Shown here: positions 24,906 through 63,900 of the stretch, piece by piece
How positions within the stretch are numbered: the stretch's first letter is position 1
Layout of the letters: every line of letters starts with the position of its first letter
DNA from: an uncultured Acidobacteriota bacterium
Lineage (GTDB): Bacteria; Acidobacteriota; Thermoanaerobaculia; Multivoradales; SZUA-115
Length of the DNA: 64,000 bases
Reading direction: 5' to 3'
NCBI GenBank assembly: GCA_963805975.1
Contig: CAWDVR010000005.1
Location: 160,001-224,000, forward strand
Made by a program: the position numbers and the translations under genes
Notes under the pieces: model-generated
What the model saw: only the letters and a program-made list of their open reading frames with translations
What the model was told of the DNA's origin: nothing
Database searches by the model: none

Positions 24906-27900
24906 GCTGCGGTCCCGCGGCACCGGCAGGAGCGGAGGTACCGGGGCGACAGCGTGGAGGGCCGTGCCTTCGCCGGTCCGCGAGCGCAGGGCCTCTTCCA
25001 CGCGACCGGCGAGCGCGGCCACGGTGGGCGCTTCGAAGAGCGCCCGCACCGGCAGCTCGATGCCCGCCGCCTCGCGCAGGCGCGAAACGACCTGGGTCGC
25101 GAGGAGGGAGTGGCCGCCCAGCTCGAAGAAGTGGCCGTCGGCCCCCACCTGGTCGTGGCCCAGCACTGCGGCATAGAGCCCGGCCACCAGCTCTTCGAGC
25201 GGCGAGGCCGGCGCCGCTCCGCCCGTGGGCTCGAACATCGGGGCGGGGAGGCGCTTGCGGTCCACCTTGCCGCTGGGGTTGAGCGGCAGGGCGTCGAGCA
25301 CCACCACGAAGGCCGGCACCATGGGCTCGGGCAGGCGCCGGCGGAGAGCGTCCCGGAGATCGGCGCCCCTCACCCCAGCCCCCTCCCCGCTGCCGCGGGG
25401 CGAGGGGGACGGAAGGGAGGCATTCTCGTTCCCTCTCCTCGCTTGCGGGGAGAGGGCTAGGGTGAGGGGTTCTGGCACCACGTAGGCCACCAGGCCCCGG
25501 CCTCCGGGCAGGTCCTCGCGCAGCACGGCCACGGCCTGGCGGACGCCCGGCTGCGCGAGGAGCGCGGCCTCGACCTCGCCCAGCTCGATGCGGAAGCCGC
25601 GCAGCTTCACCTGGAAGTCCAGCCGCCCCAGGAACTCGATCTCGCCGGAGGCCAGCAGGCGAGCGCGGTCCCCGGTGCGATAGGCGCGCGCGCCGGGCTC
25701 GCCGCTCCAGGCATCGGGCACGAAACGCTCGGCGGTGAGGCCCGGCCGGCCGAGGTAGCCGCGGGCCAGGCCGCGCCCCGCCAGCAGCAGCTCGCCGGGC
25801 ACGCCGGCCAGCACACGCGTGCCGTCTCGTCCCACCACGAAGGCGGAGGTGCCTGGCAGCGGCCGGCCGACCGTGACGCGGCGCTCGCCTCTCGGCACCA
25901 GCGTGTAGGTGGAGTAGGTAGTGTCCTCGGACGGCCCGTAGAGATTGAGCACCCGCTGGACACCCGGCCGCTGGTAGGCGCGGTGGACCAATTCGGCGGG
26001 CAGCGCCTCGCCGGCGAGGTTGATGGTTGCGAGCGAGGCCGGCAGCTCGCCTTCGAGGAGGCCCGCGAGGGCCGAGGGCACGGTGTTGAGCAGCGTGACT
26101 CGCTCGCGCTGGGCAAGCTCGGGCAGCGCGAGCGCATCGCGGGCCAGGAGCACGCTGCCGCCGGCCGCGAGCGGGGCGAAGAGCTCGAACACCGAGAGGT
26201 CGAAGTTGATCGACGTGGAGGCGAGCACACCGGAGAGCTCGCGCGCCGAGAAGGCCGTGCCGGCCCAGTCGAGGAGCGCCACGGCGCTCCGGTGGCGGAT
26301 GGCCACGCCCTTGGGCCGGCCCGTGGAGCCGGAGGTGTAGATCAGGTACGCGAGGCCCTCCGGCGAGACGTCGGAAGACGAGGACGGCTCGCCGATCTGC
26401 TCGGCAGAAGGAGAAAGGAGCGCGAGATCCGTGGCGAGCTTCTCCGCGTGGTGGTCCTCGACGATCACGGCCGCGACCTGCGAGTCCTCGACCAGAAAAG
26501 CCAGGCGCTCGGCCGGGTAGCCGGGGTCGAGGGGGACGTAGACGGCGCCGGCCTGGAGCGTGCCCAGGAGCGCCGCGACCAGCTCGGGCCGGCGGTCGAG
26601 CATGACCCCCACGCGGGCCTCCGGCGCGAGACCGAGGGCGCCGAGCCGCGCGGCCCAGAACGCGGAGCGGCCGGCGAGATGGGCGTAGCTCCAGTGCTCG
26701 CCGGCGCCCACCAGGGAGATGCGCTCGGGCAGCTCGACGGCGCGGGCCAGGGCGGCCTGATGGAGAAGCAGGCCAGAGGCCGAGGGCTCCGGCCGCTCGT
26801 TCCATTCGACGAGTGCCTGTTGGCGCTCGGCGTGGGAGGCGAGGGGGATCTCTGCGGCGGGAGCGTTCGGAGCGGCGACGGCGGCATCGAGCAGTCGCTC
26901 GAGCTGCCCGACGAGGCGCATCAGGGTGGTCGGGTCGAAGAGGTCGGAGGCGTAGTTGAGCACGCCGGAGAGTCGTCCGTCCGTCTCCTCCAAGGCGAGG
27001 GTGAGGTCGAACTTGGCGGTGTCGGTGCCGGCGGCGAGCGGTTCGAGGGCCAGCTCGCCCAGCGCCGGGCGCTCGTGCGGGGCGTTCTGGAGGACGAAGA
27101 CGGCCTGGAAGAGCGGGGTGGTGGCGAGGCTCCTCTCCGGCGCCAGCTCGTCGACCAGCTTCTCGAAGGGCACGTCCTGGTGGGCGTAGGCGTCGAGGCT
27201 CGCCTCGCGCACGCGCTGGACGATCTCGGCGAAGGTGGGCTCACCGGAGAGGTCGGTGCGCAGCACCAGGGTGTTGATGAAGAAGCCGATCAGGCCCTCG
27301 ACCTCGACTCGGGTTCTGCCGGCGATGGGGGTGCCGATGACGAGGTCCTGCTGGCCGGTCCAGCGCGAGAGGAGGACGTTCCAGGCGGCGAGCACGGTCA
27401 TGAAGAGCGTGGCACCGTGCTGGCGGGAGAAGGCGTGGATCGAAGCCACCAGCGGCTCGGGGAAGCTCAAGTCGAGGCTCGCGCCGCGCTCGCTGCGCAG
27501 GGCGGGTCGCGGCCGGTCGGTGGGCAGCTCGAGCACGGCGGGAGCGCCCGCGAGGCGGGAGCGCCAGTGGGCGATCTCGGCTTCGAGCGCCTCGCCGGTG
27601 AGCCAGCCGCGCTGCCAGGCCGCGAAATCGGCGTACTGCACGGGCAGCGGCGGCAGCTCGGGCTCTCGGCCCTGGGCGAGATCGGCGTAGAGCGCCCCCA
27701 GCTCGCGCACCAGGATGCCCCGCGACCAGGCGTCGCTCGCGATGTGGTGCAGGGTGACGGCGAGGGCGTGGTCGTCCGCTCCCGCACGCAGCACGGCGGC
27801 GCGCAGCACCGGTCCGCGGGCGAGATCGAAGGGCCGGCGGGCCTCGGCCTCGACGAGGCGGAGCACAGGGCGCTCGTCGTCGGAAAGCGCGGTCAGGTCC

Positions 27901-60900: not shown

Positions 60901-63900
60901 CGCGCTCGCGCCTCAGCACCTCGGCCCACAGGCCGGCCAGCACTTCCTCCACCGGGGTGGAGGGCGCACGGTACGGCGCCGCCTCGGCATCGCCGCCAGC
61001 GGCCCCCACCTCGATCGTTGCGAGGGCCTTGCGGTCGGCCTTGCCGCTGGGGGAGAGGGGCAGGGCGTCGAGCACGGCGAAGTAGGCCGGCACCATGTGC
61101 TCGGGCAGTCGCTCGCGGAGCGCGGAGCGCAGGGCGTCGGGCGAGAGAGAGCCCCTCACCCCAGCCCTCTCCCCGCTGTCGCGGGGCGAGGGGGCCGGAA
61201 GGGAGGCGCTCTGGTCTCCTCTCCCCGCTTGCGGGGAGAGGGTTAGGGTGAGGGGTTCCCTCTCCGGCACCAGGAAGGCGACGAGCGCCGGGCCGCCGGG
61301 AAGGTCGATGCGGAGCAGCACCGCCGCCTCGCGCACGCCGGGCAGCTCGGCGAGGGCGGACTCGATCTCTCCCAGCTCGATGCGGAAGCCACGGAGCTTG
61401 ATCTGGAAGTCCAGCCGGCCGAGGAACTCGACCTCGCCGTCGGGCCGCAGGCGGGTGCGGTCGCCGGTGCGGTAGAGACGGGCGCCGAGGGAACCGCTGG
61501 CGCCGTCCGGCACGAAGCGCTCGGCGGTGAGAGCGGGCCGGTCCCAGTAGCCGCGGGCGAGGCCGACACCGGCGAGGAAGAGCTCTCCCGGCACGCCGAT
61601 GGGCACGGGGCGCAGGCCCGGATCGAGGACGAAGACGGCGAGGTTGGCGATCGGCCGGCCGATGGGGACGATAGCCGAGATCCTCGCCCGGCGGGCAGGG
61701 ACGGAAGGTGACATCGACGGCCGCCTCGGTGGGGCCGTAGAGGTTGTGGAGCGCGACGAAGCGCCCTCGCCCAGATCCTTCGCTGCGCTCAGGATGACAA
61801 GCGGTAGGGTCTACCATTCCCGAGCCGTGGTGGGCGGCACCGTGCCCCAACTTGTCATCCTGAGCCAAGCCCTCGTCATCCTGAGCGCAGCGAAGGATCT
61901 GGCTGGGCGGGCCTTCGACGCGCGAGAGCCGTTCGTGGAACCGCCGCACCAGGTCTCTCGGCAACGCCTCGCCGCTGGCCATCACCTGGCGCAGCGCGAG
62001 GTCACCCGCCTGCTCCTCCAGGCCCGGATCGTCCAGGAACGCCTGGAGCATCGAGGGCACGAAGTGGGTGGTGGTGATGCGCTCCTCGGCCATCACCTGG
62101 CGCAGGTAGGCCGGGTCTTTGTGGCCTTCGGGTCGCGCCATGACCAGCGTGGCACCGGTGGCGAGCGGCCAGAACAGCTCCCACACCGAGACGTCGAAGC
62201 TCGCCGGGGTCTTCTGGAGGACGCGATCGCCGGGGCGCAGGTCGTACTCGTGCTGCATCCACCGCAGCCGGTTGGCGATGCCGCGGTGGGTGTTCATCAC
62301 CCCCTTGGGCCGGCCGGTCGAGCCCGAGGTGTAGATGACGTAGGCCAGGTGGCTCGGCGTGACGGCGGAGGAGTTCTCTCTCGCCGTCTCCACATCGCTC
62401 TCGATCGAGACCGGAACTGGCCGTACGGACTGGGGCGCCCAGTCGAGCGTCTGCCCTTCGGCGGTCAGAACCAGAAGCTCGCGAGCACTGCCCGCCCCGT
62501 CCCCGCTCGCCAAATCCTCGGCCATGCCCGCCAGTCGCTCGGGCGGGTAGGAGGGGTCGAAGGGCACGTAGGCGGCGCCTGCCTGGAGGATGGCGAGGAG
62601 GCCGACCGACAGCTCGAGCGAGCGCTCGATGGCGATGCCCACGGCCACGTCCGGCCCGGCGCCGAGGTCGGTCAAGCGGGAGGCGAGGGCCTGGGCGCGG
62701 CGGTCCAGCTCGGCGTAGGAGAGGGCCGCGCCCTCGGCCACCACGGCGACCGCGTCCGGGGTGCGGGCGATCTGCTCGGCGAGCATGCCGTGCAGCAGCT
62801 CGCTGCCGTCGTAGCTCTCCGCCGTGCCGTTCCACTCGGCCACCGCCTGCTGGCGCTCGGCCGGCGAGAGCAGCGAGACCGCGTCGTAGCGGCCGTGCGG
62901 GTCCGCGGCGAGCGCGGCGAGCGCGCGCTGGTAGTAGCCGGCCGCGGCGGCCATCAGCGAGGCGTCGAGGTCCGAGGCCCGGTAGTTGAGGGAGAAGGAC
63001 ATGCCGCCGCCCGCCGGATCGATCTCGAAGTGCGCGGTGAGCGGGAAGTTGGTCTCTTCGTAGCCGCGGTAGCCCAGCACCTCGGCCTGCGCTCCGCCGC
63101 CGGTCGCCAGGCGCGCCTCCACCTCCTGGTAGACGTGGTAGTGGATGAAGTTGAAGACCGACTCGAAGAGCTCCCGCCCGCCCTGCCGGCGCTGCAGCTC
63201 GACCAACGGGTAGCGGCGGAAGGGGAGGAGCGCCCGCTCGCGTTCGAAGGTCTCGAGCACCAGCGCTTCCCAGGTGCCGCCGCCGAGCTTCAGGCGCAGC
63301 GGCAGCGTGTTGAGGAACAGGCCCAGGGTGCGCTCACCCTCGGCGCGCTCCGGCCGGCCGTGGACGATGACGCCCGCCACCACGTCCGCCTGGCCGGAGA
63401 GGAGCGCCAGCACCCGCAGGTGGACGGCGAGGAACACGCTCTTGACCGGCACGGCGAGCGCGCGCGCCAGGGCCTCGACGCCGCGGCTGAGCGCGGGGTC
63501 GAGGGCCACGTCGAGCGACACGGAGTGCCCATCTGGGCGCCCGTCGCGCTCCGTGCTCGTCCCGCGCGCCTGCCGGGGCAGCTCGGCGAGGGTGCTGCCT
63601 TCGAGCTCGCGGTCCCAGAAGGCGTGCGCCTCGGGGGAGGCCAGCACCTCGCGCTCCAGCGCCACGAACTCGCGGAAGGGCACCGGCGGCGGGGGCGCCG
63701 TCACAGCCTGGGCGGCGTGCCCGCCGGCCAACTGGGTGGCGTAGCTCTCGAACAGCTCGGAGAGGAGCGAGGCGGCGCTCCAGCCGTCGAGCACCGAGTG
63801 GTGGAAGGAGAGGCTGAATTGAAAGCTCTCCTGGGGGAAGCTCTCCCCCGCCTCGTCGCTCCCCAGGCGGTGTACCAGGAAGCGGGCGAGGGGCGCCCGC

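Follow-up and report, generated by a model that had tools for sequence, protein, structure and literature searches.

An inverted BoxC-type repeat in the a8-a9 loop of adenylation domains as a probable tracer of short exchanges between modules of an Acidobacteriota nonribosomal peptide synthetase

In a 64,000-nucleotide stretch of an uncultured Acidobacteriota genome (the window; G000:C5:160001-224000, with G000 denoting the genome), the 3' portion of a minus-strand nonribosomal peptide synthetase (NRPS) assembly line carries a palindromic repeat within its adenylation (A) domains. We find this element in ten of the cluster's A domains, as full copies in A1, A4, A7, A12, U2, and U11, as halves in A3, A9, and A11, and as a trace in A8. 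All copies lie between the LVA(Y/F) strand and LR..L, the helix preceding motif a9, and share a single orientation and a single frame. Comparison with G001, the genome of a sister species of the same genus, suggests that the repeat was probably inserted in this loop once or a few times before the two species split and was then copied by gene conversion as a passenger, and trimmed.

The host assembly line (19521..64000, minus strand) contains 13 A domains, a thioesterase at its end, and several frameshifts, mainly in modules 6-11. Upstream of the window the same cluster continues with 11 further A domains (U1-U11), giving 24 in the cluster, and the whole genome has 57. A domains are numbered from the high coordinate end, the A8 motif at 61420 belonging to A1 and that at 22271 to A13, and frameshifted modules were read through with X in the translation. 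The frameshifts are concentrated in the near-duplicate modules 6-11 (28000-46000), with up to nine per module and none in the G001 counterparts, and are likely polishing errors. Completeness is 96% for G000 and 93% for G001. Pocket residues taken from the alignment are DVWHMSLVDK in A1 and A3, DILQLGLIWK in A4, DLFNNALTYK in A7 and A12, DIFNNALTYK in A8, and DLTKVGHVGK in A9 and A11, which we take to specify Ser (A1/A3), Gly (A4), Ala (A7/A8/A12), and Asp (A9/A11), in keeping with the four specificities named in a preliminary description of the window. Near-duplicates are A1/A3, A9/A11, and A7/A8/A12.

All copies in the window are on the minus strand. Full inverted doublets occupy 61152..61255 in A1 (with its flanks the palindrome spans 61143-61264), 51153..51271 in A4, where the spacer is palindromic, 41355..41500 in A7, and 25366..25469 in A12. 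These four fold into long hairpins (z, -5.6 to -8.4), with none of 200 shuffles folding equally well. A left-arm remnant is retained in A3 (54546..54568), whose A domain is 94% identical to that of A1 until about 46 codons beyond the site, and right-arm remnants are retained in A9 (34955..34969) and A11 (28576..28590), the latter having a full copy in its G001 orthologue. In A8, a trace of the right end and its junction, a few bases long (38161..38172), with a typical right junction at about 38164, lies on a 1-nucleotide frameshift between Asub flanks 94% identical to those of A12. The element is absent from A2, A5, A6, and A13, and also from A10, where the loop (31773..31805) was either emptied by loss or never filled; the G001 module of the same Acore type has a trimmed element. 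The preliminary description had listed the same full copies, half remnants, placement, and four absences, together with a possible degenerate copy near 38165, and all of this holds. It had also seen a homogenised Asub with a DLPGG motif as common to the carriers. That motif is not diagnostic, being found without the element in A10 (DLPGGR), which the description left out, and in two A domains of another cluster (DLPGG). The short loop of U5 (G000:C5:245130) has about 20 bases like the element's right arm, either an old remnant or a chance likeness of a PRxGE loop of the common kind.

Its sequence identifies the element as two BoxC/PIT/TM-type arms in inverted orientation, in a longer-hairpin variant rather than the strict TM(ECO) form. 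Using the boxes CCCTCNCCC, GGGNGAGGG, N3, GGGNGAGGG with a relaxed first loop, we find 112 arms in the genome, five of them in the window. A strict first loop of 3-6 bases is present in 17 of the 112 and in none in the window; the majority have 8 or 10 bases, the longer loop arising because the hairpin has extra pairs. A looser arm scan gives 158 matches, compared to 10-13 in two shuffles. The 131 strict arms fall into 83 loci, 43 being simple inverted doublets, and in 36 of 44 doublets an arm with a T-class second loop is paired with a C-class arm. By a codon-usage heuristic, 14 of the 83 loci are in frame in genes and the other 69 are not; this 92-kb cluster accounts for 11 of the 14. Of these 11, four lie outside Asub (two A2-A3 loops, one condensation [C] domain, and one linker between thiolation [T] and C domains) and use two frames. 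A flank table of 108 arms reveals no TA end of the kind seen in MITEs and only a weak G/C bias immediately outside the arms, and the exact arm is present in 4 of 31 related genomes. Three in-frame copies were observed in noncluster genes (G000:C3:288372, C3:488202, and C1:1499533), the first with the EEPLT junction of the NRPS copies.

Holder et al. 2015 (PMC4666352) describe BoxC/PIT/TM(ECO), in the accessible text, as intrastrand-triplex repeats with TTA and CCG second-loop types. The element here shares with TM(ECO) the three 9-base boxes, TTA-like and CCG-like second loops, inverted pairing, and patchiness among relatives. In contrast, its first loop is mainly 8 or 10 bases instead of 3-6, and it occurs in frame at 14 of 83 loci, whereas that text places the E. 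coli copies always in intergenic sequence. The structure computed here is that of a folded hairpin, the triplex being described for TM(ECO). As a palindrome inserted in frame in a surface loop, the element behaves like the Rickettsia palindromic elements (RPEs; Delihas 2007, PMC2229807), but it is probably unrelated to them in sequence, its arms matching BoxC. As the available part of that paper has it, RPEs are palindromic repeats of 100 to 170 bp translated within proteins and likely neutral, as here, but sit in 19 different genes, whereas here one loop of paralogous domains is repeatedly filled and its flanks appear converted.

The loop is indeed the same throughout, as the preliminary description stated, but the junctions are not identical. 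In G000, 2-4 codons separate the element on the left and 2, 3, or 6 on the right, and left junctions across all copies range from 2 to 8 codons. Judged by eye, the right junction sorts by species, with 2 codons in 7/9 G000 copies and 6 codons in 10/11 G001 copies. Every measured insert keeps the frame, while 36 non-NRPS doublets split 12/14/10 over the three length classes, and the added length across natural modules is 8-60 residues. The inner arm piece is duplicated in 3/6 full Asub copies versus 0/36 non-NRPS doublets, a possible result of out-of-register exchange between copies that slippage would fit too, and the one hint of activity. In A7 the duplicated piece is that of the right arm, and the start of the spacer and the right junction are A12-type. 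The A4 copy bears one reciprocal change of an A-T to a C-G pair, as had been noted before; it alters two residues, is missing from the G001 orthologue's right arm, and amounts to one event only. Copying of one arm from the other as template, a mechanism that we presume, accounts for this pair without selection and explains it as well as selection for pairing would.

Similarity among carriers is confined to the surroundings of the loop. We compared 19 representative G000 modules, six of them carriers, using pairs of different specificity only and all 27,132 relabellings. Within 30 codons of the site, carriers have a mean identity of 0.754, versus 0.662 ± 0.023 when relabelled (P = 0.00055). This excess is marginal in the A6-A8 region (P = 0.043) and absent in the pocket region (P = 0.71) and the T domain (P = 0.65). 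In addition, none of 20,000 random sets of genome doublets matches the mutual similarity of the six full Asub copies (P = 5e-5 for the five nonduplicate copies), and the long-arm loop CGCTG(C/T)CGCG is found in 6/6 of them versus 1/108 arms outside the cluster.

In the orthologous cluster of G001, 19 modules are seen, of which 12 have the element or a clear remnant, one is doubtful, and six are empty; in four modules of a different G001 cluster the element is absent. Over the 20 codons before the site, a paralogue from the same genome is at least as similar as the G001 orthologue in 18 of 20 carrier-pair rows and in none of six element-free rows, the rows occurring in pairs and hence being nonindependent. 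U1 and U4 are empty in G000 and filled in G001, a gain or loss of unrooted direction. Their identity to the G001 orthologues is 0.60-0.62 beside the site versus 0.85-0.96 in Acore and T, and the corresponding tracts span roughly -26..+10 and -16..+2 codons. Across the 8 codons that precede LPDYM, A4 and A7 are 0.92 identical and their G001 counterparts 0.88, the orthologues reaching merely 0.67 and 0.58. The T domains, by comparison, give 0.90 and 0.95 for the orthologues and 0.73 for A4 versus A7, with unrelated pockets. The right half of Asub in A4 (51040..51150, minus strand, bounds approximate) is 92% identical to that of A7; A4 and A7 share one version of it and their G001 counterparts a different one. 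Paralogues are closer than orthologues within bounded tracts, the pattern expected of concerted evolution. Shared tracts are 88-97% alike and not 100%. Our 3SEQ-like test works by permuting individual bases and inflates significance (a control without the element also passed), and its tract positions alone are used.

The suggestion that the element spread by gene conversion of Asub is supported by these similarities and tracts but is too narrow, as some tracts extend beyond Asub, either over the whole A domain (A1/A3; G001 modules 4 and 7) or over Acore plus the element (A7). A 126-base identity between G001 modules 4 and 7 was considered as an Asub-only tract and rejected; their N-terminal A parts are also 87-100% identical, which makes it a whole-A event. 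The pockets of these two modules were not assembled. Module 7 has an Ala-type pocket in G000 (40000-43500) and an A4-like, Gly-type N-terminal part in G001 (L100:1-900 and L019:1-900), a likely change of specificity between the sister species. The G000 A7 is likely a mosaic of an Ala core, an A12-type element and junction, and A4-type sequence from just before a9.

Several observations weigh against so simple a history. Separate trees, as proposed in the preliminary description, scatter the carriers in the pocket tree and place 19/20 of them in one weakly supported group in the Asub tree, mixed with five noncarriers. A single carrier clade is rejected in all three trees, even for Asub (approximately unbiased test, p = 0.0045), with log-likelihood losses of 59 (Asub), 984 (pocket), and 236 (T); therefore, losses, mosaics, or extra insertions are needed. 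The fewest changes of carrier label (pocket 9, Asub 8, T 11) are uninformative. Spacer similarity among five G000 copies is not significant (P = 0.15), a non-NRPS copy is the best match for the spacers of A4, A7, and U2, and in the G001 copy L018:2479-2598 the spacer is unrelated and the right flank native. For 4/5 G001 copies, the closest match among 68 G000 spacers comes from an Asub copy. The four other in-frame sites of the cluster and a case in Gemmatimonadota described below indicate that fresh insertions happen, and some copies, that of L018 above all, may be separate insertions. The comparisons also draw on short segments (65 codons) from two genomes, with low support for deep branches, an unrooted module history and direction of gain and loss, and an orthology of A7/A8/A12 blurred by differing module arrays.

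Nevertheless, a first insertion or insertions into the a8-a9 loop before the split from the sister species, presumably by the machinery that disperses the repeat through the genome, followed by copying from module to module as a passenger on conversion tracts, would probably account for the distribution. The tracts range from about 15-40 codons around the loop up to a whole A domain, and in-frame deletions would then have trimmed the copies of A3, A8, A9, and A11 and several in G001.

The loop itself appears well suited to receive foreign sequence. The insert takes the place of about three residues of LgrA, at the position where, according to the available text of PMC8341866, methyltransferases interrupt A domains at a8-a9, after L(V/A/I)(A/G)(Y/F)xxx. 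A methyltransferase-type insert in another G000 A domain (on C1) begins at the same residue. The insertion point is identical to that of interrupted A domains such as TioS (5WMM) in that text; unlike them, the insert here is a repeat-derived coil of 8-60 residues without a catalytic domain. An AlphaFold model of A12 built from 59 sequences matches the fold of solved A domains at a mean predicted local distance difference test (pLDDT) score of 91, the roughly 34 added residues being predicted as a low-confidence coil (pLDDT, 51-75) in an otherwise normal domain. No extra Pfam family was found in the A11-A13 protein, and we infer that the added residues are neutral.

In a genome from the Longimicrobiaceae (Gemmatimonadota), four A domains (L022, L030, L033, and L036) with different pockets and similar flanks have this loop occupied by a single-hairpin BoxC-like repeat of that genome's own. 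Of 50 copies of that repeat 30 were inspected, and only three are in frame, all in this loop. A further variant of the element is found in another Thermoanaerobaculia record (L024). To judge from the Longimicrobiaceae copies, the same loop is filled independently in another phylum. The genome-collection scan, whose pattern requires an intact right arm near A9 and misses other forms, gave 16 loci, comprising nine G001-type modules, the four Longimicrobiaceae domains, the one Thermoanaerobaculia variant, and two GEGEG-type runs (L031 and L037) that we counted as chance or unclear. A metagenome scan gave three loci, one the same as L024, one of low complexity, and one not NRPS.

Other histories were weighed against spread by conversion. 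The repeat could have landed repeatedly and at random, surviving only in frame and in tolerant loops, with later arm-to-arm exchange homogenising the copies. The four in-frame cluster sites in two frames, the Longimicrobiaceae and L024 cases, the differing spacers, and the left junctions of 2 to 8 codons all suit such a history, yet it leaves unexplained why homogenised Asub flanks are found in carriers only, why junctions sort by species, and why the element occurs in 10/24 A domains of this cluster versus 0/33 elsewhere in the genome; we regard it as rather unlikely. Alternatively, an element-bearing module may have been duplicated and new cores recombined into the duplicates, leaving Asub and T native. 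The available text of Baunach et al. 2021 (PMC8097286) describes exchange of Acore within NRPS clusters, with Asub mostly left native, and module duplication with Acore swap is there the main route of NRPS diversification; the near-duplicate sets would fit it, as would module 7 by a core swap ending just beyond the element. T should then track Asub, which it does not (P = 0.65; A4/A7 Asub 0.92, T 0.73), and in U1, U2, and U4 Acore and T remain orthologous while the surroundings of the loop differ. Duplication with core swaps is already refuted as the sole process but likely explains some copies; as the main account we consider it improbable. Sequence-specific targeting of the loop by a mobiliser would be in line with the constant loop, orientation, and frame and perhaps with the weak G/C bias outside the arms. 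The junctions differ, however, the 69 loci not in frame in a gene have no loop-like target, and similar loops of other NRPS regions are empty. The tolerance of the loop together with selection suffices, and therefore no targeting is needed. Site-specific targeting, which the preliminary description had offered as one of two explanations, is unneeded at a known tolerant a8-a9 site (PMC8341866, as far as its available text goes), other loops of the cluster holding separate insertions, and we consider it very improbable. Finally, an assembly artefact in this repetitive region might be suspected from the frameshifts of modules 6-11, and no read set of the organism was found (in three soil sequencing runs 6-7% of words matched, the assembled contigs were DNA of relatives, and no RNA run was listed). 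A separate assembly of the sister species, frameshift-free here, has the same loop filled with different sequences, and the tracts fall short of 100% identity, which makes an artefact scarcely credible.

Whether the hairpin could itself drive the exchanges, its arms serving as a homology anchor or a break made by fork stalling or by a DUF559 nuclease (see below) starting conversion, was asked separately. The site falls within or next to the best tract in 9/14 carrier modules versus 0/7 element-free ones, the inner arm piece is duplicated in 3/6 full Asub copies, and E. coli TM motifs accompany local variability in the available text of PMC4666352. If carriers are the products of site-covering tracts, however, 9/14 versus 0/7 is expected of a passenger. 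Donor-switch scores at the site in 20-codon windows (carriers 4.0, noncarriers 2.5) find their equal at -30 (4.1) and +50 (4.5), and in 15-codon windows the gap between carriers and noncarriers closes (2.6 versus 2.5); with equally high scores at other Asub and T positions, the test gave no element-specific peak. Tract ends lie within 2 codons of the site in just 3/28 cases, and U9 and U10 (G000:C5:258000-261900), element-free and with unrelated cores, are 98-99% identical from a9 through T. Of the two roles considered in the preliminary description, that of tracer is supported by the short Asub exchanges that the hairpin appears to mark, whereas that of driver finds no support and seems to us improbable.

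The machinery behind the first insertion may involve a nuclease. The sole DUF559 gene of G000 (L039; G000:C3:920037-920657) is bracketed by BoxC arms, and among 14 full-length DUF559 matches in 31 genomes, 11 have a word of at least 20 bases in common between their flanks, compared to 6 of 300 random places sharing at least 14 bases. In relatives, DUF559 genes tend to have a local variant of a palindrome on their flanks. From these associations, the DUF559 gene is a candidate mobiliser of the repeat. Repetitive extragenic palindromic (REP) doublets flank the RAYT transposase. The present repeat resembles the REP/RAYT system in its inverted doublets, variable spacers, and enclosure of one small nuclease gene, and differs in that the gene between the repeats is DUF559. 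A Y1 transposase (PF01797, RAYT) was searched for in both genomes (96% and 93% complete) and not found, and RAYT was rejected as mobiliser. A literature search, largely of open-access main texts, turned up no paper that treats BoxC repeats within NRPS genes or pairs DUF559 with BoxC. One could imagine that BoxC hairpins, once their own DUF559 nuclease has cut them, start recombination in NRPS genes, a homing-like spread that would drag Asub along and offer crossover points for swaps like the apparent Gly/Ala change of module 7, although we think this a long shot.

The element is not alone in this cluster. A second repeat family, a CGTC-type hairpin, occurs in frame in other A-domain loops, namely A1 between a4 and a5 (61771-61902), A4 before a3 (52201-52279), and upstream modules (G000:C5:246114, 249522, and 263042). 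It counts 85 arms in the genome, nine in this cluster, and none in four other NRPS regions. The cluster (G000:C5:178000-270000) holds 19 BoxC and 9 CGTC arms, and neither type was found in the four other NRPS regions, which span 131 kb of similar GC with 31 A domains. Longer residence or local hopping might underlie this excess. Adjoining the assembly line, at 15535-19504 on the plus strand, are an argininosuccinate-lyase-like gene and a pyridoxal phosphate enzyme fused to an ATP-grasp ligase, presumably akin to the diamino-acid supply genes of lipopeptide clusters.

The repeat, the in-frame insertion of repeats, the tolerance of the a8-a9 loop, and recombination between NRPS modules were each known already. 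As in the recombination described in the available text of PMC8097286, modules here are mosaic, with different histories for specificity and flanking parts; unlike there, short tracts internal to Asub appear to move between modules that differ in specificity. The present case contributes a natural marker by which such exchanges become visible, in a part which that text treats as mostly left alone. In addition, many natural modules tolerate 8-60 arbitrary residues in this loop, a property of use in tagging or engineering. Proof that the hairpin sets off exchanges would make the significance much greater; the switch and tract-end tests gave no such sign, and at present the element serves as a probable tracer of how Asub sequence is shared between modules of one assembly line.

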